A program made the position numbers and the translations under genes. This document shows positions 291-26,129 of a stretch of 32,000 bases of DNA, one piece after another. Within the stretch, counting starts at the first letter, position 1, and every line of letters starts with the position of its first letter. A model generated the notes under the pieces. The model saw nothing but the letters and a program-made list of their open reading frames with translations, had not been told where the DNA came from and did not search any database. This stretch comes from Desulfocapsa sulfexigens DSM 10523. GTDB lineage: Bacteria > Desulfobacterota > Desulfobulbia > Desulfobulbales > Desulfocapsaceae. The stretch is from positions 2,190,001 to 2,222,000 of the forward strand of contig NC_020304.1 of NCBI RefSeq assembly GCF_000341395.1, written 5' to 3'.

Positions 291-1703
291 ATGAAGATAG
301 AGTCAGTACTTCAAAGCGTATCCGTATTTGGTGAGTTGCTAAATGGTATTCCACATGGGATTGCTATTTTGGGAACTGATCTCTGCATCTTGACGATGAA
401 TCGCTATCTTGAGGCGATGACAGGGTACAGTACCGATGAAGCCAGGGGTGTTTACGGCGATTTTATCCTGCGAACAAACCTTGGTATCAAAAATCAAATA
501 TGTGCCGAAGTGTTGAAAAGTGGCGAATCAGTTTCAATTGATGGAAATATTATCAATCGTCGTCGTAAGAAAATTCCTGTTCATTTCACTATAAGCCGTC
601 TTCATGATGGTGAAGGTCAGCCCTCCGGAGTGCTTTTTGTTCTGGAAGACAGCTCGGTGGTAAAGGTTGAAGAATTAAGCCATCGGGAGCAATCCATCCG
701 CTCTAAAATTCTCGGCCACAGCTCACAGATGGAAAATGTCTTTGAACTGATGACCGTGCTTGCCCGCACCGATGCTTCGGTATTAATTACCGGTGAAACC
801 GGAACCGGTAAGGATCTGATGGCTGAGGCACTTCACAAGTCGTCGCAACGGGCACGTCAACCTTTTATCAAGGTTAATTGTGGTGCTCTTCCCGAAGCCC
901 TCCTTGAATCAGAACTTTTTGGCCATGTTAAAGGTGCCTTTACTGGCGCTGTCAATGAAACGGCCGGTATGTTTCGTCTGGCTCATCTGGGGACAATATT
1001 CCTCACGGAAATTGGTGATCTCTCCCTGCCTCTGCAGGTCAAACTGCTCTCTGTACTTGATGATAAGGAGTTTTTTCCCGTTGGGGGGAGTAAAAAAGTT
1101 AAGGTGGACGTCCGAATTATTGCCGCAACCCATAGATCGCTCCGAGAAGAAGTGCAGCAGGGACGTTTTCGCGAAGATCTTTTCTATCGTTTGAATGTTT
1201 TGTGTCTTCATTCTCCGCCACTTAGAGAACGTGATGGCGATATTCGACTTCTTTTAGACCATTTTTTACGTCAGTTCAATGCAAAACTTGGCCGGGAGGT
1301 GACAGATTTCAGCCCCGAGGCCATCGACTTTCTGAACCAGTATAGATACCCAGGAAATGTTCGTGAACTACGCAATATTGCCGAATACTCAGCTAATATC
1401 TGTCAGGGTAGGGTGGTTGAGGTAAAAGACCTGCCAGCCTACCTCTTTCGGCCGGCGGTGAATCCTGAAATGAAAAGCAGTTCAGCTATGAGTCATCCGT
1501 TAGTGCAAAGAGAAGAGGCTGTGGCAGCGCGGGTAACAGTGCCGGCAGGTGGAACAACACCCGGAGGCTGGGTAGATGTGGAAAAAGAAATGATACTGGA
1601 TGCTCTGCGTAGCAGTGGTGGTAATAGATCGAAAGCATCTGAAATTTTGGGTTGGGGACGGACGACACTCTGGAGAAAACTAAAAAAGTATAAGATGGCT
1701 TAG
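291..1703 (+). CDS. sigma-54-dependent transcriptional activator (PAS - AAA+ - Fis-type HTH), no receiver domain
   Basis: 470-aa ORF. It has an N-terminal PAS-like segment. The central sigma-54 interaction domain carries Walker A GETGTGK, the bEBP signature GAFTGA and the arginine-finger region RFREDLFYRL. The C-terminal HTH reads NRSKASEILGWGRTTLWRKLKKY. The Walker B region reads TIFLTEIG rather than the usual LFLDEIG. Confidence 0.9.
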   Translation: MKIESVLQSVSVFGELLNGIPHGIAILGTDLCILTMNRYLEAMTGYSTDEARGVYGDFILRTNLGIKNQICAEVLKSGESVSIDGNIINRRRKKIPVHFTISRLHDGEGQPSGVLFVLEDSSVVKVEELSHREQSIRSKILGHSSQMENVFELMTVLARTDASVLITGETGTGKDLMAEALHKSSQRARQPFIKVNCGALPEALLESELFGHVKGAFTGAVNETAGMFRLAHLGTIFLTEIGDLSLPLQVKLLSVLDDKEFFPVGGSKKVKVDVRIIAATHRSLREEVQQGRFREDLFYRLNVLCLHSPPLRERDGDIRLLLDHFLRQFNAKLGREVTDFSPEAIDFLNQYRYPGNVRELRNIAEYSANICQGRVVEVKDLPAYLFRPAVNPEMKSSSAMSHPLVQREEAVAARVTVPAGGTTPGGWVDVEKEMILDALRSSGGNRSKASEILGWGRTTLWRKLKKYKMA

Positions 1704-1720
1704 AGGGGGAGAAGAGGGAT

Positions 1721-2074
1721 ATGAAGATTATGATTACAACCCGTGGCGATTTTGTCTCCCCACGTTTTGATTCGAGTTCAGAGGTGCTGATCGCAAGTTA
1801 TTACGATCAACAATTAATGGAGGAACCGCGCTCTTTACTTCTGAGTAATGTCTCTGCTGAGATACTCTGTGATCTTGCCTTGAAAGAGAATGTTGCCATC
1901 GTTGTGTGTGGGGGGATTGAGGAGGAGCATTACCAGTTTCTAACCTGGAAAAAAATAGTAGTAATCGATTCAGTGATCGGGCCCCATGAAGCAGTACTGG
2001 AGCTTGGTATGAAGAACAGACTGGAACCTGGTATAATATTACCAGGAGTAACCTCAAAGGAGGTGGCCTCATGA
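1721..2074 (+). CDS. NifB-C-terminal/NifX/NafY-family (Nitro_FeMo-Co fold) small protein
   Basis: 117-aa ORF starting 17 nt after the activator stop. Its stop overlaps the next start (ATGA at 2071-2074). The patterns VSPRFDSSSEVLIA and VAIVVCGGIEEEHYQFL..KIVVI match my memory of this family. No search was run. Confidence 0.6.
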   Translation: MKIMITTRGDFVSPRFDSSSEVLIASYYDQQLMEEPRSLLLSNVSAEILCDLALKENVAIVVCGGIEEEHYQFLTWKKIVVIDSVIGPHEAVLELGMKNRLEPGIILPGVTSKEVAS

Positions 2075-3852
2075 CAGAGCGTCATCATTGGTTAAACAAA
2101 ATTCTGCCCTCGCCTCTGGCAGAAGATGGCAATGCTGCTGACAGTGAACAGGTATACACCAAGTTTTCGAGAGGATTATCTGTAATACTGCTGGTACTTG
2201 TGCTTGTACCTTTGACCGTTTTGTCACTCCTGTCACATTATCAGTACAAAGAGCTTCTGGAAGAAGAAGAGATGGACCAGCTAGTTCTCAATTTAGAACA
2301 GGCCCAGAGTACCATTGAGGCCTTTATTACAGAGCTGCAATCGATCATAAAATTCGTGGCCCGTGATGATCGTTACGAGGAACTGCTTAATCCGGACGAG
2401 CTGGAGTCTCTTTTCGTTCGTCTCAAGGATGAGTACCCCGGGTTTGCAGATATTGAAATCATTGACCCCGAGGGTACCCAAAAGGCCTATTTGGGCCCCT
2501 ATGCACTTGGAGGGCATAATTATAGCGAACAAACCTGGTATAAGGAAGTCTTGTTGCGGGGTGTCCATATAAGCAACATTTTTTCCGGTTTTCGTAATGT
2601 TCCTCACTTTGTTATTGCTGTAAGCAGAAAAGACCCACGGAGTCAGGAATACTGGGTTTTACGAGTCACCATTGAAGGGAAAACGCTACAGAATTTTATC
2701 AATACGATCAGCACCAGTTATGCAGACGACATGTTTTTGGTTGATGCAGAAGGAATAACCCAGACGATACCTCAGAAATATGGGAATATAGGGGAAAAAT
2801 GTATCTTACACGACGTGGAAGAGAAAGAAGTGAAGTTCTTTGATGGGGATTATCATAACCAGGATGGTTCAACTGAGAAGACGCAAAGAATACTGATTGT
2901 CAAAAAGACCTTTAAAGGCATGCAGATTAATCATGCAGCCATCGATCTTGTGGAGACGCCATGGAGATTGGTTTTAGTTAAAGAGCAGTACCTGCATGCC
3001 GCTACCTGGGTGCAGTTTAAGGTAAAATTAACAACAATGTTTTTTAGTAGTGTTGTTGTTGCCGTATTCGTAATTCTGGAAATCAGTTCAGCAATTACCA
3101 ATCACATTCGAGAATCGGATAAAAAACGCCAATTCCTCTATCGGGAAGTTGCTAACAGCAACAAACTTGCATCCGTCGGCAGGTTGGCGGCAGGTGTTGC
3201 CCATGAAATCAACAACCCCCTGTCGATTATCAATCAAAAGACAGGTCTCGTTCAGGATTTTATGGAATTTTCCGAGGATTTTCCCCATAAAGAAGCAATG
3301 GCGGAAGCGCTTGATGGAATTCAGAACAGCGTTGAGCGCTGTAAAACAATCACCCATCGTTTACTTGGCTTTGCCCGGCAGACAGATGCAAAAACAGAGG
3401 AGATTGATTTTCATCATACCATCCGGGAGGTTGTTGATTTTCTGGCAAAGGAAGCAACGTATAACCAGATACAAATTGAATTTGATTTGAGCCAGGACAT
3501 AAAAAAAATATGGTGTGATCGTGGTTTGTTACAGCAGATTTTCCTGAATATAACCAACAATGCCATCGATGCCATAGGAAGAGATGGTAAAATCGTTCTT
3601 GCAAGCAGGAAAGTTGGTGAGGACAGCATTGAGGTGACAATCTCGGATAACGGGCCCGGTATGTCTCCAGATGTAAAGCGGAAAATTTTTGAACCATTTT
3701 TTACGACAAAGGAAACGGGTAAGGGGACTGGTCTTGGCTTATCTATAACCTATGGTTTGGTGAAAAAGCTTGGTGGCAGTATTCATGTAACATCTGAAAT
3801 GGGTAAGGGAACCACGTTCGTCATTAGCTTGCCGGTGAAACGAAGTGTGTAA
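2071..3852 (+). CDS. sensor histidine kinase with periplasmic dCache-like domain
   Basis: 593-aa ORF. TM1 is [21 protein letters not shown] ~250-aa extracytoplasmic Cache-like segment follows ([38 protein letters not shown]), then TM2 ([19 protein letters not shown]). The H-box is [10 protein letters not shown]. The N/G1/G2 boxes are [16 protein letters not shown] and [10 protein letters not shown]. Confidence 0.9.
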
Positions 3853-3885
3853 GTAGCTTATAATGCAGAATATCTGGGTGACCAA

Positions 3886-4263
3886 ATGATAAAGTCAAAA
3901 GTGTTGATAATTGATGATGAGATTGAGTTTGCAACAACCTTGTGTCAACGGTTGAAGCTCCGTGGGATGGCCGCTATTGATGTCCATAGTGGAACCGAAG
4001 GCTTGGTAAGTCTGGTGAAAATGAACCCGGGAATTGTCATTCTTGACTTGAAAATGCCAGATATGAGTGGTCTTGATGTATTAGCCAAGGTCAAGCAACA
4101 TGATCCAAGTATCGAAGTCATCATGCTCACCGGTCATGGATCTGCCGAAGCCGGGGCGGAGGCTAAAGAAAAAGGTGCTTTTGATTACATTATGAAGCCG
4201 GTTGACCTTGTGAAACTTGTAGATAAAATGGAACTGGCTGATGAAAAACGCAGCAAAGCATAG
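3886..4263 (+). CDS. stand-alone response-regulator receiver (CheY-like)
   Basis: 125-aa ORF. It has VLIIDDE, the phospho-acceptor context VILDLKMPDMSG, and VIMLTGHGS and KPV. There is no output domain. Confidence 0.9.
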   Translation: MIKSKVLIIDDEIEFATTLCQRLKLRGMAAIDVHSGTEGLVSLVKMNPGIVILDLKMPDMSGLDVLAKVKQHDPSIEVIMLTGHGSAEAGAEAKEKGAFDYIMKPVDLVKLVDKMELADEKRSKA

Positions 4264-4960
4264 GTCTTTTATGGATGCAAATACGGAAAATAGTATTCGA
4301 CAGGAACAGATAGAGTCCTTTGGTCGGCTGATGGCAGGTTTTGCCCACGACATGAAAAACCATCTTGGTATCATACGGGAATCGAATGGGTTAATGGGAG
4401 ATATTCTGGAGATGGGCGTTCTGGGTGGGGACGCTAAAATGTTGGAACGACTTAAGAAATCAATCGATGCCATTGAGCGCAGAGTTGTAATTTCGGCTAA
4501 TATGATGCATCATCTCAGTGGGTTGGCTCATCGACCGGATCACCCCTTTTCTTCCTTTTTGATTAATGATGTAATTAAGGAGGAATATGTGTTTCTTGAA
4601 CGTTTTTCAAGGCTTAAGCAGATCAATATTGTAATGGAGCTTCAGGAAATGCTTCCGGCGGTGTATAATGACCCATCACTGCTGCAACATGTTGTGTATC
4701 GTATATATTCTCAGTGTCTTGAACTGCTTGAAAGTGGGCAGAGCCTGTCCATTGTAACGGAAGTGGAAGGAAATAGGGCTGTACTGGTTTTTCGTTTCCC
4801 TTTCGGGGTGTCTGTTACAGACGGTGAAACACTTTTGCATACAACCCTTCTGTCTGCAGTTGAAAAAATGGAAGGAACTTTAACTATTAAAGACAAAAAT
4901 AAAGATGGTATGGAAATCAGGCTTGGCATTCCCTCGTTATCTGTTGATAGCACATCCTGA
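4241..4960 (+). CDS. HisKA-containing protein with degenerate ATP-binding domain (pseudo-kinase / histidine-phosphotransferase-like)
   Basis: 239-aa ORF. The H-box is present ([15 protein letters not shown]). The C-terminal half ([17 protein letters not shown]...FRFPFGVSV...[10 protein letters not shown]) has no N-box Asn and no G1 (DxGxG) or G2 (GxGxG) boxes. The start is uncertain: the ATG at 4241 overlaps the receiver gene by 23 nt, and an alternative ATG lies at 4271. Confidence 0.6.
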
Positions 4961-4994: not shown

Positions 4995-5729
4995 ATGATT
5001 ATAAATGCCATTCTGAAAAAACTTAAAGATGCATGTACTGATCTGCTGCCTATTGTGCTGGTAATTGCTTTTTTTCAGATGGTTGTCATCCGGCAACCTC
5101 TGCCTCAGATGGGAGAGGTTTTATTTGGGACACTCTTGATAGTGCTGGGACTGAGTCTTTTTATTCAGGGTCTGGAAATGGGACTGTTTCCGATTGGCGA
5201 GGCCATGGCCCAGGCATTGGCCAGAAAGGGAAGCCTCTTCTGGCTTCTTGCATTTGCCTTTGCGCTCGGTTTCTCAACTACCGTGGCAGAGCCAGCTCTT
5301 ATCGCTGTAGCAGCTAAAGCAGCCGAGATAGCCGGTGATGGCGGACTTATTGATTCGAGTCCGGAATCGTTGAAACAGTATGCATTTGGCCTTCGCATGT
5401 CCGTTGCCTTTTCCGTAGGGCTTGCAATTCTGATCGGAGTTATGCGTATCCTCCGTGGCTGGCCCATCCATTATTTGATTATTGGTGGTTATGTACTCGT
5501 TATGCTGATGACTATTATTGCTCCCAAGGAAATTATTGGTATAGCCTATGATGCGGGAGGGGTGACGACTTCAACCATAACTGTCCCCCTTGTTGCAGCT
5601 CTCGGCGTGGGGCTGGCCTCCACAATTCGTGGTCGAAGTCCTTTGACGGACGGCTTTGGTCTTATTGCCTTCGCCTCTCTCCTGCCTATGATATTCGTAA
5701 TGGGCTATGGACTTCTGATTTTCAAATAA
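4995..5729 (+). CDS. DUF1538-family polytopic membrane protein (paralog 1)
   Basis: The track ORF begins at 4905. I prefer the in-frame ATG at 4995 ([13 protein letters not shown]...), which parallels the N-terminus of the paralog. The protein has multiple TM segments. It shares the motifs [11 protein letters not shown] and [26 protein letters not shown]...[11 protein letters not shown] with the next gene. Family recall is from memory. Confidence 0.75.
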
Positions 5730-5746
5730 TTGGCGCAGACAATTCT

Positions 5747-6535
5747 ATGGAATTTATTAAAGAGTTCAGTATAATCCTTCTTGCAACCTGCAGGGATGTC
5801 TTACCTATTGTTCTTCTGATTACTGTATTTCAGCTGGTTGTGCTCCGTCAAAAAATTCCCAATTTACCACGCCTTATCGTCGGTGGCGTCTATGTAATTC
5901 TTGGGCTGGCACTTTTTCTGGCCGGATTGGAAAAGGCCCTGTTCCCACTGGGAAAAATAATGGCGGCTCAACTTTCTGATCCTGTTTTTCTCTATGGTAC
6001 AAATGAAGCAATAACTCATGTTGACTGGACTGCATACGGTTGGGTATATCTTTTTGCGGCAATGATCGGATTTGCAACAACCATCGCGGAACCCTCTCTT
6101 ATTGCAGTGGCATACAAGGCAAATGAGGTGTCTGCTGGGACGATCTCCACGTGGGGGTTGCGTATTACCGTGGCCATTGGGGTGGCATTTGGAATAAGTC
6201 TTGGAACCTACAGGATAGTGACTGGTACGCCACTCTATTTATATATTCTTGTTGGTTATGTGGTTGTAATCATACAAACCATATTTGCACCTAAGACAAT
6301 TGTCGCTCTGGCCTATGATTCCGGGGGCGTGACTACGTCCACGGTAACGGTGCCACTTGTTGCTGCGTTGGGCCTTGGGCTTGCTTCCACTGTTCCTGGG
6401 AGAAATCCGGCCCTTGACGGTTTTGGTCTTATTGCTTTTGCCAGCCTTTTCCCAATTATTGCAGTACTGGGGTATGCGCAATTGATGGAGTGGAAAACCA
6501 AACATACTATTAATACTAACACTGGTGAACGGTAA
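5747..6535 (+). CDS. DUF1538-family polytopic membrane protein (paralog 2)
   Basis: 262-aa ORF starting 17 nt after paralog 1. It carries the same motifs (TIAEPSLIAVA; [26 protein letters not shown]...[11 protein letters not shown]). Confidence 0.75.
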   Translation: MEFIKEFSIILLATCRDVLPIVLLITVFQLVVLRQKIPNLPRLIVGGVYVILGLALFLAGLEKALFPLGKIMAAQLSDPVFLYGTNEAITHVDWTAYGWVYLFAAMIGFATTIAEPSLIAVAYKANEVSAGTISTWGLRITVAIGVAFGISLGTYRIVTGTPLYLYILVGYVVVIIQTIFAPKTIVALAYDSGGVTTSTVTVPLVAALGLGLASTVPGRNPALDGFGLIAFASLFPIIAVLGYAQLMEWKTKHTINTNTGER

Positions 6536-6559
6536 GTAAGCCAGTATATGTACCTTCAC

Positions 6560-6592
6560 CAAATTCTTTTTTCAAAACCAAAAAAGAATTTG
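6560..6592 (+). promoter_or_regulatory. perfect 13-bp AT-rich inverted repeat (hairpin) between the DUF1538 genes and the PII-like gene
   Basis: CAAATTCTTTTTT (6560-6572), 7-nt loop CAAAACC, then AAAAAAGAATTTG (6580-6592). The repeat lies in the 89-nt gap, 25 nt after the stop of paralog 2. There is no downstream U-tract, so it is not a canonical intrinsic terminator. Confidence 0.45.
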
Positions 6593-6624
6593 TAGGTTCT
6601 AACGGATAATAATGGAGATATATA

Positions 6625-6972
6625 ATGCGCTTTAAACTCATTCTATCCTCGGTGAAGCCGGGTATCACGGATACAATTGTTGATGCGGCAAAAGCGGCGG
6701 GTGCAACAGGAGCTACTATTATTCCTGCCAGAGGTACCGGAATTCGTGAAGCCAAAACGTTCTTTGGTCTTTCCCTTGAAGCTCAGACAGACATTATTAT
6801 GTTTCTCGTTGAAGAACACTGTGTCGATGGAATTCTTGGTGCGATAAAAGAATCCGGAAAATTTCATGAACCCGGTACAGGTATTGCCTTTGTCCTACCG
6901 GTCGAGCATGTGGTCGGTTTGGAAAGTCAGATGGAAAAGTTTAAAACCGAGGTTCGTGAAAGCTATTTTTGA
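6625..6972 (+). CDS. PII-like signal-transduction protein (GlnB-fold, non-canonical T-loop)
   Basis: 115-aa ORF with a GGAG Shine-Dalgarno 8 nt upstream. The beta-alpha-beta / loop / beta-alpha-beta layout is MRFKLILSSVKPGITDTIVDAAKAAGATGATIIPARGTG...TDIIMFLVEE..VDGILGAIKESG...GTGIAFVLPVE. The T-loop is short, with no GlnB Tyr51-like site. Confidence 0.7.
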   Translation: MRFKLILSSVKPGITDTIVDAAKAAGATGATIIPARGTGIREAKTFFGLSLEAQTDIIMFLVEEHCVDGILGAIKESGKFHEPGTGIAFVLPVEHVVGLESQMEKFKTEVRESYF

Positions 6973-7020
6973 CAGATTTAAAATGTTGGCTATATATTTC
7001 TATTGCTGGAGGTGGGTCTG

Positions 7021-7422
7021 GTGTCTGAAGGAAAAAAAATAATACGAGCAGAAGATGTTCTGGAAAAGAAAGTTGTGTTTATCGATGGAATGGCTACATC
7101 GCGGGATGCTGCTGCAAAAATGCGATCTGAAAAATGCAGGTGTCTTCTCGTTGAAAAACGGCATCCCGATGATGCCTGGGGTATTGTTGTTGTCCAGGAT
7201 TTTATAAAGGGGGTGCTGGTTGCTGGGCGTTCTCCACAGGAAGTGCACATTTATGAAATTATGACGAAACCCGTGATAACCGTGCCTGCGGATATGGATA
7301 TCCGTTATGTAGCCCGTCTGCTCTTTCATGCGGGCATTCGAAGGGCACCGGTGGAAAAAAATGGGGAAATGATTGGTGTGATTTCGCTTTCCTCATTGAT
7401 CCTTGACAATGACCTTTTTTAA
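7021..7422 (+). CDS. CBS-pair (Bateman) domain protein
   Basis: The track ORF starts at a TTG (7003). The GTG at 7021 sits 6 nt after GGAGGTG and is the more likely start. There are two CBS repeats (VVFIDGMATSRDAAAKM..CLLVEK...GIVVVQDFI and ITVPADMDIRYVARLLFHAGIRRAPVEKNGEMIGVISLSSLI). No other domain is present. Confidence 0.8.
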   Translation: MSEGKKIIRAEDVLEKKVVFIDGMATSRDAAAKMRSEKCRCLLVEKRHPDDAWGIVVVQDFIKGVLVAGRSPQEVHIYEIMTKPVITVPADMDIRYVARLLFHAGIRRAPVEKNGEMIGVISLSSLILDNDLF

Positions 7423-7437
7423 TCGAAAACACTCAAA

Positions 7438-7866
7438 ATGACCAAAAGAGATATACCGGTTCCGATCTGTATGACCTGTGGAGAGCATAGAAATGGGCAG
7501 TATGTAAAAGAAGAACCCTTCTATCTATGTAAGAACTGCGGCACCGAGATGAGATATCGGCCGGCTGGAGAATTGTTGAACTCTGGCAGTAAGAAAGCAA
7601 TAGAAAATAACGGCTGGGCTGTGAGTTTTTCCGTTCGCAGTTCGGAACTCTATTCTGCGCAGGCAATGCTTGCGTTAGGGATCGCTCTGATAGTATTGTC
7701 TGTTGTTTTTGTGTGGTTGGGGAAACTCGAAAATGACGCTGCTCTCTGGAGTATCGGCTCGGGAGTTTTTCTGAGTATCCTTGGGAGAAGAAAATCGATT
7801 AAGCAGAAGAAAAAAAGCCAGTTGATCCTCAGCCAATTTCCTTACTGGAAAAAAGAACGGCTGTAG
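7438..7866 (+). CDS. hypothetical zinc-ribbon membrane protein
   Basis: 142-aa ORF with CxxC...CxxC (CMTCGEH...CKNCG) followed by two predicted TM helices and a Lys-rich tail. I do not recognise a family. Confidence 0.45.
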   Translation: MTKRDIPVPICMTCGEHRNGQYVKEEPFYLCKNCGTEMRYRPAGELLNSGSKKAIENNGWAVSFSVRSSELYSAQAMLALGIALIVLSVVFVWLGKLENDAALWSIGSGVFLSILGRRKSIKQKKKSQLILSQFPYWKKERL

Positions 7867-7914: not shown

Positions 7915-8865
7915 ATGATACGTTGCAATAATTTGGAATTAAGCAAGAAAACTGTCTATACAACTCTTCTTCGCCTTGGAGTCAGTGCCGCAGTTCTTGT
8001 CTGGCTTTTTTCGCAAACTGATACGGCAACGGTGCTGGAAACATTTGGAAGACTTCCACTTGTAATCTGGGTTGTTTCTGTTTTCTTTTTTCTCACTCTC
8101 TGTCTACTGGCAGCAACCCGTTGGTTTCTTCTTTCCGGAATTTTAGGTCTACCAGGTCAGTGGTTCACCTATGTCGGTTATTATTTTATTGGCCAATTTT
8201 TTAATCTTTTTATGCCAACCAGTGTGGGCGGGGATTTTTTTAAGATTCTGTTTGTCTCTAAAGGACAGCAGAGTGGATTGTTGGTCAGTACCTGTGGTGT
8301 GATAGCTGATAGATTTATCGGTCTCCTGACAATGTTTTTAACGGGGACGATAGCAGTTCTGATGTATCCTGGGGAAATTTTGCCCGGAAAGAATGAATGG
8401 CTTTTGTATTGCGGTGCATTCGTGATTGTCGGATTATTGTTTTTTGTCCCGTTCCTCTATTATTTACTTCGTACTTTTCGATCTAGCATTAGCGAAGAGC
8501 TTGTATTACTGAGAACAATCTGGCAATATCCCGCCGTGTTAATAAAGATTGCTGGTCTCTCAGTTGCCTTGAATTCTATTCTTATCTCAATTATAATTGT
8601 GTTGGCTACAAGTATCGGAATTGATGTACATCCGAGCTATTTTTTTGCGATCTTTCCGTTAACCGCAATTGTCACTGTTTTACCCTTTAGTTTTAATGGC
8701 ATGGGGTTGCGAGAGGGGGCTTTTGTCTATTTACTGTCTCTACAGAATGTACCCTTCGAAAAAGCGTTATCCCTGAGTCTTTGTCTTTTTGTTGTTCAGT
8801 GCAGTGCCGGTTTTGCTGGTGGTATTGCCTATGCCATTGGGCTTCATAAAAAAACAATTGATTGA
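7915..8865 (+). CDS. UPF0104 / lysylphosphatidylglycerol-synthase-TM-region family membrane protein (flippase-like)
   Basis: 316-aa polytopic ORF. It has the family-typical N-terminal arrangement and the motifs PTSVGGDFFK and NGMGLREGAF. Confidence 0.7.
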   Translation: MIRCNNLELSKKTVYTTLLRLGVSAAVLVWLFSQTDTATVLETFGRLPLVIWVVSVFFFLTLCLLAATRWFLLSGILGLPGQWFTYVGYYFIGQFFNLFMPTSVGGDFFKILFVSKGQQSGLLVSTCGVIADRFIGLLTMFLTGTIAVLMYPGEILPGKNEWLLYCGAFVIVGLLFFVPFLYYLLRTFRSSISEELVLLRTIWQYPAVLIKIAGLSVALNSILISIIIVLATSIGIDVHPSYFFAIFPLTAIVTVLPFSFNGMGLREGAFVYLLSLQNVPFEKALSLSLCLFVVQCSAGFAGGIAYAIGLHKKTID

Positions 8866-8913
8866 GAAATATGGATACTCTTTCCCTCTTACACTTATTT
8901 ATTCGAGGGCCAT

Positions 8914-10278
8914 ATGTCACTCCATTTTAAAATTTCAAAGTACCTGCTTCCTTATCGAATTCTTCAATTTAAGAGAAAGTGGAAGGCCCTGGAGCATAGT
9001 GATCCCGAGTCTGTATCCCGATACCAGTTCGAAAAGATCAGACAGGTCCTTAAACACTGCCAGCGGCATGTTCCCTATTATCGCGAGCTATTTCAAGAAC
9101 ACAATATCCACCCGCAGGATATTCAATGCCTTCAGGATCTTCAGAAAATTCCTGAGTTGTCAAAGGATATCCTGAGGCAACAGCAGGAAAGAATGGTCTC
9201 CGAAAAAGGCTGGCACTTTCTGCGCGAGCAACTTCTCACCAGTGGAACCACCGGGGATAAAATCAGTATATGGGTCAACCCTGTTGCCAGGGCTCAGGAG
9301 TTTGTCCGTTACTGGCTTTTCTTTCAGCGAGGAGGCTATCGTATAGGGAAACCCTTTGCTGAATTCTCCAGCGACTTCTTTATTGATCAAGACGATCCTC
9401 TTCAGGTGCTTTTTCACCGCAATCCGATAACTAATCAACTGCTTTTGAACACTTCATATATTTGCCAAGAGAATGCTCTCCAATATCTGGATTTGATGAG
9501 GAAGAATAAAGTACTCTTTATTAAATCGAGACCATCCTCTCTTTATATTTTTTCCCAGTACCTTCAAGAACAGGGGGCAAGAGATCTGGGATTACAGTGT
9601 GTGTTCACCATAGGTGAGCCTTTGCATGTTCACCAGAGGGAAGTCATAGAGAAAATATTTGGTTGTAACGTGTTAGATTTTTATGGCCATATGGAGCGTG
9701 TGGTAGCCCTGTCTGAATGTACACATGGAAGGATGCATGTAGATGAAGGCTACGGGTTTGTAGAGTTTCAAGAAGTGACCGATGCAGCCTCTGGGAATGA
9801 TGATTGCAAAAAATTCCGTCTTTTGGGAACAACTATGCATAATTGCTTGATGCCATTTATCCGCTATGATACCGGTGATCTGGTTGAACCAGATGACAGC
9901 AAAGTACCATGTCCTTGTGGAAACAGGTCACGGATTGTTAAGCAAATTTATGGGCGCACAGAAGATGTTATTACCAGTCAGGACGGGGTCACTTATCCGG
10001 CACTCTTTCTTGTCTTTAATATGATCAACGGAATAAAGATGGGACAGATTATTCAGGATGATCTGATTTCATTTCGGGTGAATGTTTATCCAGAGCGTGA
10101 ACTATTTGATGCCGTGCAGGAGAAAGAACTCCTGTACCATTTAAGAAAATATCTTGGACAGAATGCGAGTATTTCTATTCATATTGTTGATGTAAGAGGG
10201 TTTGAATACGGTAGTTCAGGAAAATTCCGATCTGTTATTTCCTTTGTCAGGAACTCCTGGGCATGTCCGACTGACTGA
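8914..10278 (+). CDS. PaaK/CapK/F390-synthetase-like adenylate-forming enzyme
   Basis: 454-aa ORF. The phosphate-binding loop LLTSGTTGDKISIW resembles the SSGTTGKP loop of phenylacetate-CoA ligase-type enzymes. Further family features are YGHMER and IRYDTGD. The substrate cannot be told from sequence. Confidence 0.75.
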   Translation: MSLHFKISKYLLPYRILQFKRKWKALEHSDPESVSRYQFEKIRQVLKHCQRHVPYYRELFQEHNIHPQDIQCLQDLQKIPELSKDILRQQQERMVSEKGWHFLREQLLTSGTTGDKISIWVNPVARAQEFVRYWLFFQRGGYRIGKPFAEFSSDFFIDQDDPLQVLFHRNPITNQLLLNTSYICQENALQYLDLMRKNKVLFIKSRPSSLYIFSQYLQEQGARDLGLQCVFTIGEPLHVHQREVIEKIFGCNVLDFYGHMERVVALSECTHGRMHVDEGYGFVEFQEVTDAASGNDDCKKFRLLGTTMHNCLMPFIRYDTGDLVEPDDSKVPCPCGNRSRIVKQIYGRTEDVITSQDGVTYPALFLVFNMINGIKMGQIIQDDLISFRVNVYPERELFDAVQEKELLYHLRKYLGQNASISIHIVDVRGFEYGSSGKFRSVISFVRNSWACPTD

Positions 10279-10417
10279 TTTTAGCAGGGTGACATGGCTT
10301 TTACAGTAAATGGTAAATGATTCTTGTATGTCATGAGGATATGTTGTAGTTTTTTTTAATAGTATGCAAAATTAGTGATTTATCTGTGGTTTTACTATTC
10401 TTTAAGGAGGGATGTTC

Positions 10418-11806
10418 ATGAAAGTTCTACTGGTGCAGCATGCGAGTAATAATGGTCTTACGTCATTTCCCATTGGCCTCGGATGTGTTGCCGCTGTACT
10501 TCTGGAAGCGGGGCATCAGGTCGACTTTATAGATTTGGGTCTGGAGGACAAACCTGTCCAGGCGCTTGAGGCACGTATTGGTGAATTTCATGCTGAAGCC
10601 CTCGGTTTTACCCACTGGACAACCAATTACACCGAATATGTTAACCTGATAAAAGAGTGTCCTTCTGCCAGAAAGCTGCCAAAAATTGCGGGGGGGCCAC
10701 ATGCCTGCGCCGTTGCTGAACAGATTTTAAGAGAAGGCTATGTGGATGTCGTTGTTCTCTGTGAAGGTGAATTGATTGCGGACAACCTCTTTTCAACTCT
10801 TGAAAACCATGGGGATCTGAATACCGTAAAGGGGATTGCCTATCTTGATGGCGATCGATTTGTGCAAACTGAGGATGCGGGGCTTATCGACGACCTTGAT
10901 AAGTATCCTTCTCCTCCCTATGAATTGATGAACATCAAAAGTTATTTTGGTCGATTAAAAGGACGGCCATCGGTTGAGTTGATGGTTTCACGAGGGTGTC
11001 CTTTTAATTGCGCATTTTGCTATAGGGGTCCAAGCAGTGGTACAAAAATGCGACGTATGACAACTGATCGGGTCATGGAGGAGTTATCCATAATGAGAGA
11101 ACAATATGGTTTCAGTTCCTTTTTCTTTGTAGATGACACCTTTACTCTGAACCGGGAGTGGGCAATTGATTTTTGCCAGAAAGTCATAGCATCTGGGAAA
11201 AAAATTGCGTGGGCCTGTCAGACACGGGTTGATCGGGTTGATCGTGAACTGCTGACTCTGATGAAAAAATCAGGCTGTGTCTGTGTTCATTTTGGTGTGG
11301 AGTCAGGAAATCAGGAGATTATTAGCCATTTGATGAAAAAGATCACCAAGGATCAGGTGCGTAAGGCCCATGCTGAATGTCAAAGACTCCGTCTTTCCAC
11401 AATCACTTACTTTTTGATAGGTACACCCTGGGAGACCGAGGCGACTGTTCGTGAGACCATTGAGTTTGCTAAGGAACTGAAGCCAACGATAGCTCTATTT
11501 TTTGCAGCAACACCCTATCCCGGTTGTCCAATGCGTGATGTCTATATTGAAAAGGGTATGCCAGTCCCTGAGAGTTGTGATGAGTATGGTAGATTTTGGG
11601 TTGAAGATGCGCCGAAGGACAGTGAAAAGCAGGTGAAACGAGCTGGAAATCTGGATAGTTATCAACTCTGTCTGGATGCCACCAAGGAAATCGTTAGAGC
11701 CCAGGTGCGTGATGTGGGTTCCTATCCACGTTTGATTTCTGAGTTTATTGATCAGTATGGATTTGTCGATTTTGTTAAGAATGCTGCGGCCCGGCTTCGC
11801 CTTTAA
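10418..11806 (+). CDS. B12-binding-domain radical SAM enzyme
   Basis: The track start is 10412. The ATG at 10418 has better spacing to AAGGAGG. The N-terminal flavodoxin-like B12-binding segment reads KVLLVQH...FPIGLGCVAAVLLEAGHQVDFIDL. The radical SAM cluster motif CPFNCAFC lies at 10997-11020. Confidence 0.85.
   Translation: MKVLLVQHASNNGLTSFPIGLGCVAAVLLEAGHQVDFIDLGLEDKPVQALEARIGEFHAEALGFTHWTTNYTEYVNLIKECPSARKLPKIAGGPHACAVAEQILREGYVDVVVLCEGELIADNLFSTLENHGDLNTVKGIAYLDGDRFVQTEDAGLIDDLDKYPSPPYELMNIKSYFGRLKGRPSVELMVSRGCPFNCAFCYRGPSSGTKMRRMTTDRVMEELSIMREQYGFSSFFFVDDTFTLNREWAIDFCQKVIASGKKIAWACQTRVDRVDRELLTLMKKSGCVCVHFGVESGNQEIISHLMKKITKDQVRKAHAECQRLRLSTITYFLIGTPWETEATVRETIEFAKELKPTIALFFAATPYPGCPMRDVYIEKGMPVPESCDEYGRFWVEDAPKDSEKQVKRAGNLDSYQLCLDATKEIVRAQVRDVGSYPRLISEFIDQYGFVDFVKNAAARLRL
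11225..11242 (+). repeat. in-frame 9-bp tandem duplication (CGGGTTGAT x2) inside the radical SAM gene
   Basis: Read directly from the sequence. It encodes RVD-RVD within QTRVDRVDRELL. Confidence 0.9.
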
Positions 11807-19543: not shown

Positions 19544-20623
19544 TTAGAAGGTTGATCGAGTGGTTATATCCTCAAAGACTTGTTGGACTTGAAGTAACAA
19601 TTCTGAAGGGATTTCTTCAGTATCCGTCTCATAACTTCTTGGCTGACGAAATCTGCTGGCCTGTTCAATAAAAAGCTCGCTCTGCTCTATACCTATTTTC
19701 TCAGCCAATAGTCTGAGCCCTTCTACTGGATTCGCAATTAGCCTGTCATACGAAAGGAACAGAGCATGCGAGGAAGCTGTGGCGGCAAGATAGCCATAGC
19801 ATGCGCACCAATAGGCCAGCCAAAATGACAGTGAATTTGTGGCCTTATACGGAGTGTCATTGAGCCAGTTTGAGAAATTAACAGGTTTTAGGGTGCGACC
19901 GAAGTCGTAATGTCCAATTGCTTGCATATAGGATTTTGCGAATTTGTCGTCAGCATGAATTTTTAGGAAATTCTGGTGCTGTTGCAGCAGTGAGGAAGCA
20001 TGAGCTATCGGGTCACGATATAAAATCACTGTGATGGAGTCGGGGAATATTTTTCTTAAATAATTGACACGGGATATGTTTAAGTTGTTTTTTGAGATAT
20101 AACGTATAGTTGCAATATTGTTTGAGGCAGATAAAACAATAATTTTTCGAATATGATCCCTTAAAAAATGTTCGAAATCTCGATCGCGCTGCCCCGCCCA
20201 CGCCTCTATGTGCCCCTTTTTATAGTTTGATCTCCAGAAAGTGCGCCAAACAATTTCTTCAAATGCCTCCGGGCTGTCTATGCCCACCATCATACCATCA
20301 CCATGCGCCCGCTCTCTTTCTTTATCATTGCTTTGAAATGATTGAGAAAAACGATTCCATAACAGCGGTGTCAACACGAAAGGCATATTTCGGTAACTAT
20401 GACTGGTGAACTCATCAATAGTATTACAAAGCTCCAATAGTAAGGTGGTGCCAGCCCTTGGCAGCGCTGTGATAAATACCGGACGCTTTACGTCTATGCT
20501 CGAGAGTCTTTCAGCAAATAGTGTGTTTTCAAAATCTGATAATGCTGCCTGGGCAGTCCAGGAGAAAAACGCTATTTTGTGCAATACTCGATCAAGAAAG
20601 CCGTAACGATTTTCAAAGGCCAT
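19544..20623 (-). CDS. PAPS-dependent sulfotransferase family protein (cytoplasmic)
   Basis: 359-aa ORF. The 5'-phosphosulfate-binding loop is LPRAGTTLLLEL. A 3'-phosphate-binding-like region is RYISKNN...ILYRDPIAHASSL. There is no signal peptide or TM segment. Confidence 0.75.
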   Translation of the reverse strand: MAFENRYGFLDRVLHKIAFFSWTAQAALSDFENTLFAERLSSIDVKRPVFITALPRAGTTLLLELCNTIDEFTSHSYRNMPFVLTPLLWNRFSQSFQSNDKERERAHGDGMMVGIDSPEAFEEIVWRTFWRSNYKKGHIEAWAGQRDRDFEHFLRDHIRKIIVLSASNNIATIRYISKNNLNISRVNYLRKIFPDSITVILYRDPIAHASSLLQQHQNFLKIHADDKFAKSYMQAIGHYDFGRTLKPVNFSNWLNDTPYKATNSLSFWLAYWCACYGYLAATASSHALFLSYDRLIANPVEGLRLLAEKIGIEQSELFIEQASRFRQPRSYETDTEEIPSELLLQVQQVFEDITTRSTF

Positions 20624-20625
20624 CG

Positions 20626-21003
20626 TTATTTTTTCCTAAACAGCCAAAGGATTACGTACACAAAGACAGTACTAGCGAGAATGAATTGCCAAGTTAATGT
20701 GAAATAGATAACAGCCATCATCGATAAAACCCCTGTTTGCTCCAGCAGCCATATAAGACCAACAGGAAGTCCTATAGCCGCTGCACTGCTGAAGAAAATC
20801 AGGATAAAAAGGCTAAACAGCTTGATGGCATGTTTTTGAAGGGCCTGCTCTTTTTGTCGATCATCCAGAGTGGAGTTTTGCATCACTGAAGCAGCCTCTT
20901 TCGCAATCGCAAGAACCTTGAGACTATTGTCTACCAGCCGCAACCCCTTCAAAAGAATAATAAACCCAACGACCAGTATAATTGCACCGACCAAAGTACT
21001 CAC
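20626..21003 (-). CDS. small membrane protein, hypothetical
   Basis: 125-aa ORF with a GTG start that overlaps the upstream stop (GTGA). It has 3-4 TM segments. Its stop lies 2 nt before the sulfotransferase start. Confidence 0.5.
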   Translation of the reverse strand: MSTLVGAIILVVGFIILLKGLRLVDNSLKVLAIAKEAASVMQNSTLDDRQKEQALQKHAIKLFSLFILIFFSSAAAIGLPVGLIWLLEQTGVLSMMAVIYFTLTWQFILASTVFVYVILWLFRKK

Positions 21004-21317
21004 TGATTTGGCTTATCACTGTTAGATGGATTATCTTCAGCAGCATCTCGATTCATGGGGGCTTGCTCCAACCGTTCTTCCAGGGATTCATTGGCATAGA
21101 CATTTTTCTTTCTCAGTAGTCTTTTTATTGGAAACCACAAGAAACCAAGGATGGCAACAACCACGGCAAAAATTAAAGCTAGTAGTGAACCTATAGCGGA
21201 CAAACCAGTGCCGGGCCCAACGTAAGCGAATGCGGTAGCAGGAATAAAAACGAAGCTAAGGCAAAATAAGCATGTTGAATGGTAAATTTTCATGAACAAA
21301 TCTCTAAATTTGAGCAT
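21000..21317 (-). CDS. small signal-peptide/TM protein with acidic C-terminal tail, hypothetical
   Basis: 105-aa ORF, with an alternative ATG at 21293. The signal-like segment is CLFCLSFVFIPATAFA. It is followed by YVGPGTGLSAIGSLLALIFAVVVAILGFLWF (TM), a basic patch KRLLRKK and then a low-complexity acidic tail. Confidence 0.45.
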   Translation of the reverse strand: MLKFRDLFMKIYHSTCLFCLSFVFIPATAFAYVGPGTGLSAIGSLLALIFAVVVAILGFLWFPIKRLLRKKNVYANESLEERLEQAPMNRDAAEDNPSNSDKPNQ

Positions 21318-21370
21318 TGAGTAATGGTACTAAATTGTACATTCCCTTTCCAGATAAACGTGTACGTTTA

Positions 21371-22711
21371 CTACTGACATGACTCCCTCGCATCAGAAAA
21401 AAATTTCTGATCCATTGCAATGGGCAGGCGCTGAGCATCATCCACTATACCTGCCAGCCCACCAGCAATAATATTCATGTAGTCCCACACTATTTCGTTG
21501 TCTCCTGTAATCTCCACTACACGCCCTTTAGTCGACTCGACCAACAGCATATTGCCATTAGGTAAACGTTGGTGCTTTCCCATAATATGAGTGAAGAATG
21601 GCGTTTCTTGACTGCCCTCAAATACGGTGTTCACAGTATTATCACGAGTATCCCATAAGACTATTCGGCTTGACGGATTTTTGACATCTGGCAATAAATT
21701 ATTGTTATCAAAAATAGTCACTGTATTACCGTCGACGAAATCAGGATCGTGCTGGCGTAATACCTGACCTATGCTGGATGCTTTGAGCTTGTGGGTAGCG
21801 CCATCAAAAACCATAACGGAATTAATGTTTCGTAGTGAAATCATGATGTCACCCGTTTGAAAAATTCCCGACGTCATTTTGTTGGAAAATATCTCAATAT
21901 CGTTAAGGTGTAAGGTATCTCCATGCACTACAGTATCCCAATTATCTATGCTGGACATATATAACAACCCAGACAGTCCATTATTATGAAGAAGATCAAA
22001 AATAGAAATTTCTTCCAGTAGTTTACCACTCGAAGATACTTTGAGAATCGTGAATTCCTGAAATATTGTGTGGTAATTGGGGATTGAGGCCTCTTTGTCG
22101 TAGTGATTAATTTGACCTGGCACCCAGAAATTCCCCTGATCGTCTCGATCTATAGAGTGGTGAGTTCGATGGGGGAAATTCCATACCACATTACCGCAAG
22201 CGTCCATGCGAGTAAGCCCGACCCTTTCCAGATTAAAAACAATATCACCATTTTCTATAACTTTTACACCGTGAACATGAGTGCCAGGGGCTGATTTAGG
22301 TTGGTCTTCTTCAGGTATATGATTAAAGTCAGGCCAAATTTGAAATGGGTCTATAGACCAGCGATGAATCTCATTTCCCTGATCATCGACAACAAGTATT
22401 CGAAAGTCTTTTTGCTGAGTAATTCCACTAATTACAGTCAGACCTTGCTGCATTAAGACGGGGGATCGAGTGAGCACCCGATCAACACGGGCTGTTTCGC
22501 TAAAATAAAATGGCAAAGCAGCTGCCTCATTACCGACCATTTCAAGCAGACCACTTTTTGCAAGGTTAAATCCACTTTTAATATACTCATAAGGAAATAA
22601 TTTGAATTCACTGACAGCCAGACCGCAGGAGAATAGAACCATTGCAATTGACAGGCAAAAGAGCCCAAGAGATAAAGAATCTAGATGTTTACTTAAAGAT
22701 TTTTTGGGCAT
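21371..22711 (-). CDS. arylsulfotransferase (ASST)-like beta-propeller protein, N-terminally membrane anchored
   Basis: 446-aa ORF with a signal anchor (LGLFCLSIAMVLFSCGLAV). Repeated propeller-like blades carry His motifs (HRTHHSIDRDDQGNFWVPG; HGDTLHLNDIEIF...GDIMISLRNINSVMVFD; LRQHDPDF). These resemble the PAPS-independent aryl-sulfate sulfotransferase families. The call is from memory only. Confidence 0.55.
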   Translation of the reverse strand: MPKKSLSKHLDSLSLGLFCLSIAMVLFSCGLAVSEFKLFPYEYIKSGFNLAKSGLLEMVGNEAAALPFYFSETARVDRVLTRSPVLMQQGLTVISGITQQKDFRILVVDDQGNEIHRWSIDPFQIWPDFNHIPEEDQPKSAPGTHVHGVKVIENGDIVFNLERVGLTRMDACGNVVWNFPHRTHHSIDRDDQGNFWVPGQINHYDKEASIPNYHTIFQEFTILKVSSSGKLLEEISIFDLLHNNGLSGLLYMSSIDNWDTVVHGDTLHLNDIEIFSNKMTSGIFQTGDIMISLRNINSVMVFDGATHKLKASSIGQVLRQHDPDFVDGNTVTIFDNNNLLPDVKNPSSRIVLWDTRDNTVNTVFEGSQETPFFTHIMGKHQRLPNGNMLLVESTKGRVVEITGDNEIVWDYMNIIAGGLAGIVDDAQRLPIAMDQKFFSDARESCQ

Positions 22712-22808
22712 GCTTCTTTCTAGCCGAGGTTGTTAGTCTTGGGATATATTGATGAAAAAATGTAATAAAGCCTCTATATTCAAGTGAATCGCTTCCAGAA
22801 CCCATTCA

Positions 22809-23816
22809 CTAAAGCCATCCTGATTTCCGATACCAGGCAACCGTTTTTTTTATCCCATTTTCCAAAGTCCAATGGGGCCGAAATCCAAGCTCAATTTGTA
22901 TGCATTTGGAACTGCAAAGCCAACCAGCCTGTTTGATCTCACACCATTTATCAGGGTTTAAATCCTGCGGACGGTTGCTAAGGCGTCCCAGTAAACCCAT
23001 AATCTGACAAGCAATCCATATAAGAGATAATGGCAGTGTCAGGAGGAAAGCGCGTGGATTTATGTGTGCGGCGATTGCGTTCATCAGAGTGTCCCAGGTA
23101 TAGGACTTGCCGTCTGTTACATAGAACGTTTTTCCATTTGCCGCATCTGTTGTACCAGCCAGAAGAATAGCCCTTACCAGGTCATCCACATAGATAAGAC
23201 TGACAGGGAAATCTCTGAAGCCACTCTTTATCATAATTCCATGGGAAGTTGCTTTAAAGAGTGGCTTCATTCCATGATCTCTGGGACCAAAGACAATGGA
23301 AGGCCTGAGGATAACGACCGGAAATTGATCCGCGATGGAGAGAACCACTTTTTCTGCTTCCTTCTTGGACTGGCCATATGCTGAGACTGGCAGTGAGTTT
23401 GGCGCCGATTCATTCACCCCTGGTTCCTTGGAACATGGTCCCGCGGCGGCCTGGCTGGAAATGTAAACGAGTTTCTGATGGCTCGGGGCATGTTGAGTGA
23501 TGAGTTGTACCAGGTTGCGTGTGGTGTCCAGATTGCCCTTGAAGTATTCGGATTTCCTGACGGCCTTCGTTGTTCCTGCGACATGAAAGACGATATCTGC
23601 TTTTTGTATCTGTGCTCCAAGTGAGGCTGGATTGTTGAGATCTCCTGAAAGCAGTTCAATATCTTTATGTTGTAGATGACGGGCTTTTGTTTCTGAGCGG
23701 ACAAGACAGCTTACTGAGTAGTGACGTTTGATAAGCTCGAAAACCAGATTTGTCCCGATAAATCCAGAGCCTCCGGTGACAAAAGCGTGCAGTTGCTTTG
23801 CTCCTTCGGTAGTCAT
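22809..23816 (-). CDS. NAD(P)-dependent epimerase/dehydratase-family SDR
   Basis: The track ORF extends to 23906. The ATG at 23816 (MTTEGAKQLHAFVTGGSGFIGTNLV) overlaps the upstream stop as ATGA and sits just before the Rossmann motif. The catalytic YxxxK is SAYGQSKKEAE. Confidence 0.85.
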   Translation of the reverse strand: MTTEGAKQLHAFVTGGSGFIGTNLVFELIKRHYSVSCLVRSETKARHLQHKDIELLSGDLNNPASLGAQIQKADIVFHVAGTTKAVRKSEYFKGNLDTTRNLVQLITQHAPSHQKLVYISSQAAAGPCSKEPGVNESAPNSLPVSAYGQSKKEAEKVVLSIADQFPVVILRPSIVFGPRDHGMKPLFKATSHGIMIKSGFRDFPVSLIYVDDLVRAILLAGTTDAANGKTFYVTDGKSYTWDTLMNAIAAHINPRAFLLTLPLSLIWIACQIMGLLGRLSNRPQDLNPDKWCEIKQAGWLCSSKCIQIELGFRPHWTLENGIKKTVAWYRKSGWL

Positions 23817-24895: not shown

Positions 24896-24912
24896 TGTGC
24901 TTTCGCCATTAT

Positions 24913-26058: not shown

Positions 26059-26129
26059 GGTTTCTGTCTGGTGCGAAATAAAAGAAACACCCTTTTTCCT
26101 GTTCTATGGTTGTTGCAAGGGGGTAAAAG

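Follow-up and report, generated by a model that had tools for sequence, protein, structure and literature searches.

In this study, we analyzed a window of 32,000 nt from Desulfocapsa sulfexigens DSM 10523 (NC_020304.1, positions 2,190,001 to 2,222,000; the coordinates below are relative to the window) and found four closely spaced open reading frames (ORFs) at 4995-7422 on the + strand. They encode two membrane proteins of the DUF1538 family, a PII-fold protein and a protein with a pair of CBS motifs. Near-identical contigs and homologues with assigned names pointed to Desulfobulbales-like Desulfobacterota as the source of the window. Our best explanation, to which we assign a probability of roughly 0.55 as a whole, is that the four genes form one operon-like module, in which a cation/proton antiporter is plugged or gated by the PII-like protein and the CBS protein adds an adenylate input, namely adenosine monophosphate (AMP). 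Comparative genomics strongly supports the regulatory idea, and the antiporter activity is carried over from a characterized homologue, UmpAB.

The same four genes had been described by an earlier sequence-only reading of this stretch, which saw two adjacent polytopic paralogues with long near-identical motifs, a 115-aa PII-fold protein and a stand-alone CBS-pair protein, and which proposed a HMMER scan against Pfam. Every descriptive point held and all Pfam scores exceeded the curated cut-offs: DUF1538 (PF07556) matched the UmpA-type protein with 231.5 bits and the UmpB-type protein with 226.3 bits (cut-off 22.6), P-II matched the 115-aa protein with 38.8 bits (cut-off 25), and CBS matched the last protein with 61.7 bits (cut-off 24). 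BLASTP gave 49% identity (4e-67) between the two membrane proteins, and both contain T[VI]AEPxLIAVA and the two further long motifs that the reading had quoted. It erred on one premise, that DUF1538 has no experimentally assigned function, because the UmpAB antiporter was published in 2017 and curated NCBI models of it exist. The NCBIfam equivalog models NF041627 and NF041628 describe the Na,Li,K/H(+) antiporter subunits UmpA and UmpB, with cut-offs of 490 and 500, respectively. The first gene matched UmpA with 372.8 bits and UmpB with 214.2 bits, and the second gene matched UmpB with 310.2 bits and UmpA with 210.2 bits; both proteins were matched end to end.

The source of these models is a study on two adjacent DUF1538 genes in Halomonas zhaodongensis (Meng et al. 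2017, PMC5484666). Expressing umpA together with umpB restored salt and alkali tolerance of E. coli KNabc, everted vesicles showed pH-dependent Na+(Li+,K+)/H+ antiport, and UmpA and UmpB were co-immunoprecipitated, showing that they form a membrane heterodimer (PMC5484666). The two genes alone were sufficient for activity in E. coli; the cloned 4.2-kb fragment ends after umpB and carries no PII gene (PMC5484666). The window pair shares with UmpAB the order of adjacent paralogues (A and then B), full-length model matches, seven predicted transmembrane (TM) segments in each protein and a heteromeric nature. It differs in that the identity is about 56%, as given in genome papers on cable bacteria, where UmpAB homologues (56% identity) were taken as candidate salinity adaptations, and in that the Halomonas work cloned umpAB only and is silent on PII-like and CBS genes (PMC5484666). 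The earlier proposal that the DUF1538 pair is a heteromeric transporter is thus supported by both the heterodimeric UmpAB (PMC5484666) and the reciprocal NCBIfam matches. By analogy with this homologue, the window pair is most likely a secondary cation/proton antiporter of the UmpAB family.

Gene order connects this transporter with the two soluble proteins. We surveyed the 80 best-matching loci, one genome per species, by comparing the window proteins with all ORFs of each locus using phmmer. UmpA homologues in these loci are 63-90% identical, and the loci come from Desulfobacterota, Bacteroidota, many Gammaproteobacteria, Nitrospirales, Longimicrobiales, Magnetococcales and others. UmpB follows UmpA in 79 loci. 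The order UmpA-UmpB-PII was observed in all 77 loci whose contig continues, three loci being cut earlier, and in 69 of the 77 the CBS gene comes next; one of the others is cut directly after the PII gene. Median gaps are 7 nt from A to B, 2 nt from B to PII and 11 nt from PII to CBS. To counter the bias of best matches, distant DUF1538 genes with 30-33% identity were also sampled from 12 lineages. A PII partner is located next to DUF1538 in 11 of them, giving 88 of 89 readable loci in total, and a CBS gene was found in none of the 12. On plasmids of Methylocystis and Chelativorans, the gene after the two DUF1538 genes is a 'P-II family nitrogen regulator', and there is no CBS gene. In Bacillota, the two DUF1538 halves are fused (about 500 aa), and the stop codon of the fusion overlaps a gene for a tandem double PII protein (about 222 aa). 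This arrangement was found in nine of ten sampled Bacillota lineages (Paraclostridium, Vescimonas, Peptoclostridium, Cytobacillus, Thermoanaerobacterium, Faecalicatena, Ureibacillus, Hazenella and Clostridium sartagoforme). The neighbors flanking the cassette vary everywhere, and only the DUF1538 pair or fusion stays beside the PII-like gene across phyla. The conserved and tightly spaced gene order suggests that the PII-like and CBS genes are functional partners of the transporter. The two partners are not equivalent: the PII partnership is family-wide and the CBS gene is a clade-specific addition. The co-occurrence that the sequence-only reading had suggested counting was therefore found for PII in both the close and the distant loci, and for CBS in the close loci. 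As a whole, its inference of a heteromeric DUF1538 transporter set by two soluble sensors was partly supported; the heteromeric transporter and the conserved PII and CBS partner genes stood, and the premise of an orphan function did not.

The predicted structure of the 115-aa protein confirmed it as a true PII-fold protein. Its AlphaFold2 model, computed as a monomer, has the order beta-alpha-beta-beta-alpha-beta with a disordered T-loop and a predicted local distance difference test score (pLDDT) of 70.9, and Foldseek matched it to GlnK/GlnB structures with a probability of 1.0 and a TM-score of about 0.6-0.7. The closest PDB sequences are those of archaeal GlnK1 (3e-6), and no PII model in NCBIfam matched the protein at E ≤ 0.01. 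E. coli GlnB served as the reference in an alignment of 83 family members. As had been read from the sequence earlier, the T-loop is short, namely five residues shorter than that of GlnB, and a modification site of the Tyr51/Ser49 type is absent; GlnB Tyr51 corresponds to Ala53 in the window protein. The basic residues by which canonical GlnB and GlnK bind ATP and 2-oxoglutarate are all lost. K58 falls within the five-residue deletion, K90 is replaced by Ile in 95% of members and R101 by Gly in 100%, and there is no conservation at R38, Q39 and R103. Instead, the family conserves R36, K44-T-F-F-G-L49, E52, Q54, D56, E63-E64-H65, F80, P83 and Q102, with F46 and G48 in the T-loop motif present in 95% and 96% of members, respectively, and an additional helix is present at the C-terminus. 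The T-loop core F-G/A-x-x-I/L-E-x-x-x-D/E is retained in alphaproteobacterial and Bacillota versions as well. Residues of the glycine loops (G24, T26, G27, T29, G35, G37, G87 and G89) are kept. The loss of the basic residues suggests that the signal of this protein is not the classical Mg-ATP/2-oxoglutarate, and the retained glycine loops suggest that the cleft may still be occupied, perhaps by an adenine nucleotide of low charge.

These PII-like proteins are numerous. An exhaustive search among 1.84 billion representatives revealed 2,023 clusters (50% identity) at E ≤ 0.001, of which 752 were found at E ≤ 1e-10. Together with the lack of an NCBIfam match, this number indicates a large and distinct PII branch. 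Among the best 150 relatives (P0361-P0510), 102 are tandem doubles, 39 are singles and five are single-chain triples (P0385, P0406, P0478, P0485 and P0491). In the tandem doubles, the N-terminal domain is the more degenerate of the two.

The last protein of the module is a stand-alone CBS pair, as described earlier, with two CBS motifs in one module. Residues 5-131 (127 aa, covering both CBS motifs) align to the Bateman module of CBS-CP12 from Microcystis aeruginosa (PDB 5nmu) with E = 1.5e-25, and CBS-CP12 is the nearest solved relative by a wide margin. CBS-CP12 binds AMP, not ADP, ATP or cAMP, and its CBS part on its own forms a dimer in which each monomer has one AMP site (PDB 5nmu). The motifs YEIMxKP, DxxxxYxARL (ARL) and RRAPV are common to CBS-CP12 and 66 CBS proteins from the cassettes. 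The ribose-phosphate motifs are partly kept, being GIVVVQD and GVISLSS in the window protein and GIVTETD and GIISVSD in CBS-CP12, with changes at two positions. It is thus reasonable to suppose, by analogy with CBS-CP12, that the window protein senses AMP or energy charge. There are differences between the two, since the window protein has no CP12 domain, so that no hexamer is expected, and its genomic partners are a transporter and a PII protein, not thioredoxin/PRK.

The two DUF1538 subunits appear to be inserted in the membrane in opposite orientations. We counted lysine and arginine residues (K+R) in equivalent loops of 80 UmpA, 80 UmpB and 73 fused DUF1538 proteins and observed a bias in opposite phase: UmpA and the N-terminal halves of the fusions are positive in the N-tail, L4 and L6, whereas UmpB and the C-terminal halves are K+R-rich in L1, L3, L5 and the C-tail. 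For example, L1 contains 0.6 K+R in UmpA and 3.2 in UmpB, and the C-tail contains 0.2 and 4.6, respectively. In addition, the fusions have an odd number of TM segments per half, without an additional TM segment between the halves, and their linker (n = 73) is acidic. The opposite charge bias and the odd TM number in fusions lacking an extra segment indicate an antiparallel 7+7-TM heterodimer, in which UmpA would have its N-terminus inside and UmpB would have its N-terminus outside and its C-terminus inside. The Halomonas paper reports just '7 TMS' and 'heterodimer', and does not address the orientation of the subunits (PMC5484666). A search with the sequences of the DUF1538 proteins found no relative among solved structures. 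We then modelled a fused member from Bacillota using an alignment of 73 sequences, and the model was confident and all-helical, with a pLDDT of 84.7 and a predicted template modelling score of 0.84. A Foldseek search of this model against the PDB gave nothing meaningful (best E = 0.05, TM-score ≤ 0.2). In the model, each DUF1538 half has seven membrane helices, two of which are predicted to be broken exactly at the AEP and D-x-GG-x-T-T motifs. From the model we infer a fold without counterpart among solved structures, in addition to the antiparallel topology. E99, R151, Y166, D186 and D219 are among the residues that never vary in any of the four kinds of half, and the carboxylates E99, D186 and D219 are likely ligands for ions or protons. 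Three invariant carboxylates, two of them at helix breaks, fit an ion-coupled exchanger.

GlnK inhibits AmtB and SbtB inhibits SbtA; in both cases, a PII protein uses its T-loop to plug a co-encoded transporter. By analogy with these pairs, the PII-like protein would be a dedicated cytoplasmic regulator that docks on the cytoplasmic face of the transporter. Ions would be handled at two discontinuous helices per subunit, the breaks of which hold the invariant AEP and (Y/F)D-x-GG motifs, and the short T-loop with its hydrophobic tip, K44-T-F-F-G-L49, would insert so that the transporter is closed or throttled. Thus, regulation by the PII-like protein would probably be inhibitory. Its signal might be a low-charge adenine nucleotide in the glycine-loop cleft, or an ion or pH sensed via acidic residues and a histidine (E52, D56 and E63-E64-H65). 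The CBS pair, in this clade only, might provide an energy-charge input and act on either the transporter or the PII-like protein; a plausible logic for AMP would be that a proton-consuming exchanger is shut when energy is low. Because Halomonas UmpAB is active without a PII gene on the clone, the PII-like protein is dispensable for activity, and a role as a regulator is the best explanation.

The likeness to known systems is partial in each case. As in GlnK-AmtB and SbtB-SbtA, a small PII-fold gene adjoins the transporter gene in the same orientation, which was observed in all close loci and in all but one of the distant lineages, and a conserved T-loop is present as a possible plug. In contrast to these pairs, the DUF1538 transporter has an unrelated fold and reportedly forms a heterodimer instead of a homotrimer; the window PII-like protein lacks K58, K90, R101, R103 and Q39 and has a shortened T-loop with a hydrophobic FFG tip; and PII proteins linked to DUF1538 have no Tyr51/Ser49-type site and often occur in tandem double or triple forms. 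For the inverted topology, Rapp et al. 2006 reportedly described paired or fused families such as SMR pairs and DUF606. These share with DUF1538 the adjacent paralogues with opposite K/R bias and natural fusions of the halves, whereas DUF1538 protomers are much larger (seven TM segments, two broken helices), and their predicted topology comes from charge bias and fusion logic. DarA/PstA and DarB, receptors of cyclic di-AMP (c-di-AMP) in Bacillota, are similarly a PII-like protein and a stand-alone CBS pair tied to ion homeostasis. However, the best PDB matches of the window PII-like protein are GlnK and GlnB, and DUF1538 cassettes of Bacillota have no CBS gene. A c-di-AMP receptor pair was set aside, as there is no specific sequence affinity and the cassette is abundant in Gammaproteobacteria, which to our knowledge generally lack c-di-AMP synthesis.

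Several points weigh against an antiporter regulated by these two proteins. The antiport activity is known from one homologue (about 56% identical) and from one laboratory, by KNabc complementation and everted vesicles, so that the physiological substrate could differ. The window proteins are below the equivalog cut-offs (372.8 vs 490 and 310.2 vs 500); six gammaproteobacterial homologues likewise reach just 367-401 bits. As for PII and CBS genes beside Halomonas umpAB itself, the published clone stops after umpB, and no Halomonas entry was present among the 120 matches listed in a homologue search seeded with the Gynuella protein (400.7 bits, the most UmpA-like gammaproteobacterial one). Neither partner gene is universal. 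C. botulinum (L095 3001-5023, L096) has a fused DUF1538 double without a PII gene, the sole exception that we found; downstream of the fusion come 508 nt devoid of ORFs of at least 40 aa and then a P-type cation ATPase. The CBS gene is clearly absent from seven close loci. The docking of the PII-like and CBS proteins, the direction of regulation, the ligands and the stoichiometry are all points that we infer. The stoichiometry is a difficulty in itself: known PII-plugged transporters are trimers and UmpAB is a reported heterodimer, so a PII trimer fits poorly. Moreover, tandem double PII proteins dominate the subfamily, which a simple trimer does not fit, and their prevalence alongside fused transporters is left unexplained by the plug model.

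In a rival explanation, the DUF1538 pair would carry another substrate (e.g., bicarbonate, another anion or a small metabolite), with the PII-like protein sensing the metabolic status of that substrate and Na+/H+ exchange being a side activity. The scores below the equivalog cut-offs would agree with this, the fold matches no solved transporter from which the mechanism could be read, and PII-like transporter partners include inorganic-carbon systems (SbtB, CPII). Many carriers are also chemolithoautotrophs or methanotrophs (Sedimenticola, Thiomicrorhabdus, Gallionellaceae, Methylococcales, tubeworm symbionts and cable bacteria), but the cassette is found equally in heterotrophs (Colwellia, Thalassotalea, Flavobacteriaceae and Teredinibacter) and in halotolerant Bacillaceae. 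Since the only experiment in the family revealed cation/H+ antiport, and since the three invariant carboxylates, two of them at helix breaks, suit binding of cations or protons, we consider another substrate unlikely. A PII-like protein that is a structural or assembly subunit, that is, a soluble cap for stability or oligomerization without a ligand-responsive switch, would explain why the gene is near-obligatory and overlaps or nearly abuts its neighbor, why the canonical effector-binding residues are lost, and why fused transporter halves are paired with tandem PII in Bacillota, which suggests a fixed stoichiometry. We regard it as quite unlikely, because Halomonas UmpAB is inserted in the membrane, heterodimeric and active in E. 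coli without the PII-like protein, the invariant glycine-rich loops lining the inter-subunit cleft of PII suggest that a ligand site is kept, and C. botulinum retains the transporter without a PII gene.

It is more improbable still that the two soluble proteins have their targets elsewhere, for instance among enzymes or transcription factors, and are merely co-transcribed with the transporter or sequestered by it as a membrane sink. Canonical PII proteins regulate soluble enzymes, as does CBS-CP12, and the assignment of partners within the cassette comes from gene context, but the DUF1538 pair or fusion is the single constant neighbor of the PII-like gene across phyla. A broader idea, which we hold as tentative and rather doubtful, is that DUF1538 and the PII-like protein are an ancient and nearly obligate two-part machine, whose substrate or signal goes beyond simple Na+/H+ exchange (e.g., a ligand-, ion- or pH-gated conductance), so that the antiporter label would describe a side activity. 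Such a machine might consist of an antiparallel 7+7-TM dimer with four broken helices and a hitherto unrecognized PII branch, in single, double and single-chain triple forms, that has moved past ATP/2-oxoglutarate sensing. A cation/proton antiporter controlled by the PII-like protein, with the CBS protein as an additional input, remains the explanation that we prefer.

The features at and around the module are listed in Table 1. For the first DUF1538 gene, the longest ORF begins at 4905, and we took the gene as starting at 4995. The start of the CBS gene was set at the GTG at 7021, as chosen by the gene callers of near-identical contigs; GGAGG is located just 5' of it.

Table 1. Genes of the DUF1538 module and its immediate surroundings in the window
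Feature	Position	Strand	Basis
Sigma-54 activator	291-1703	+	Pfam
117-aa protein, weak resemblance to Nitro_FeMo-Co (21.6 bits, under the cut-off)	1721-2074	+	Pfam
dCache histidine kinase	2071-3852	+	Pfam
Receiver	3886-4263	+	Pfam
239-aa protein between receiver and umpA, with H-box-like segment	4241-4960	+	No Pfam match
Upstream context as a whole (the five genes above)	291-4960	+	Pfam
UmpA-type DUF1538 subunit, 244 aa, predicted 7 TM, predicted N-terminus inside	4995-5729	+	Pfam DUF1538, NCBIfam UmpA
UmpB-type DUF1538 subunit, 262 aa, predicted 7 TM, predicted inverted: N-terminus outside, K/R-rich C-tail inside	5747-6535	+	Pfam DUF1538, NCBIfam UmpB
Non-canonical PII-like protein, 115 aa, short T-loop with KTFFGL, extra C-terminal helix	6625-6972	+	Pfam P-II, GlnK1 PDB match, AlphaFold2/Foldseek
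Stand-alone CBS pair, 133 aa from GTG 7021	7021-7422 (longest ORF from 7003)	+	Pfam CBS, 5nmu alignment
142-aa protein, CxxC...CxxC zinc-ribbon-like N-terminus and hydrophobic segments	7438-7866	+	No Pfam or NCBIfam match

The sequence-only reading had placed the cassette directly downstream of a sigma-54/phosphorelay block. The position is correct, and the block is lineage-specific and lies outside the conserved unit. Together with the 117-aa and 239-aa proteins, it is confined to close relatives: it is present in the near-identical contigs L001-L004, and of the 80 loci in the survey only L014 and L015 have it. We thus rejected it as part of the module. The 142-aa zinc-ribbon-like protein is found after the CBS gene in the nearest relatives only (L001-L005 and L015) and is probably a lineage-specific neighbor outside the conserved module.

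Scans for expression signals gave no lead. A sigma-54 promoter scan (TGGCAC-N5-TTGCW, up to two mismatches) gave 12 matches vs 16.9 expected, none of them upstream of umpA, and counts of sigma-70 promoters and terminators were at chance level. A sigma-70-like match (TTGACA-18-TATATT, 11/12) is located at 6969-6998, just 5' of the CBS start, where the regional count also equals chance. The 89-nt spacer between umpB and the PII gene contains a perfect 13-bp A/T-rich hairpin at 6560-6592 (AAAUUCUUUUUU...AAAAAAGAAUUU), and the folding energy, computed for a 92-nt spacer, is -16.3 kcal/mol (z = -2.2). This hairpin is kept in near-identical contigs only; in most other loci, umpB and the PII gene abut or overlap.

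Farther from the module, genes for CitMHS and Na_sulph_symp transporters were observed 5' of the sigma-54 block in near-identical contigs (L001 1-3447, L002 1024-2625 and L003 98-1508), and in Halomonas a 'citrate transporter'-like gene lies two positions upstream of umpA (PMC5484666). The presence of neighbors of the citrate-transporter type in both settings may be a coincidence. Downstream of the cassette, 7915-11806 contains an LPG_synthase_TM-family membrane protein, a 454-aa protein that had no Pfam match in our scan and is annotated as CapK_C in contig records, and a B12-binding radical SAM enzyme; in L003, riboflavin genes take the place of this envelope-related block. On the - strand, 19544-31937 includes a 1,935-aa KS-AT-KR polyketide/fatty-acid-synthase-like protein (26130-31937), a glycosyltransferase, an epimerase/dehydratase, an arylsulfotransferase-like protein and a sulfotransferase. 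The set resembles a gene cluster for making a lipid that is sulfated or glycosylated.

The DUF1538/UmpAB transporter family and its activity are already known, and so are pairs of PII proteins and transporters as a kind. A published assignment, which the sequence-only reading had named as a possible objection, thus exists for the transporter. For the cassette, our search of the literature on DUF1538, UmpAB, PF07556, PII-like proteins with antiporters or CBS, the context of the PII superfamily and PotN found no paper linking DUF1538 to PII or CBS. The searchable literature therefore appears to contain no description of the DUF1538-PII pairing, the non-canonical PII branch and its tandem arrangements, the added CBS gene or the inverted 7+7-TM architecture.

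Few signal processors are as widespread as PII proteins. Of their transporter targets, only a handful, e.g., AmtB, SbtA and NrtABCD, are understood. A PII branch of about 2,000 clusters tied almost one-to-one to DUF1538/UmpAB across many phyla would extend the known pairings by a new one and bring in a PII variant with a different ligand logic. The predicted inverted 7+7-TM architecture is a structural target without a solved relative. Furthermore, the UmpAB label has already been used to infer salinity adaptation in cable bacteria, and post-translational control of the transporter may escape heterologous assays with the two genes.

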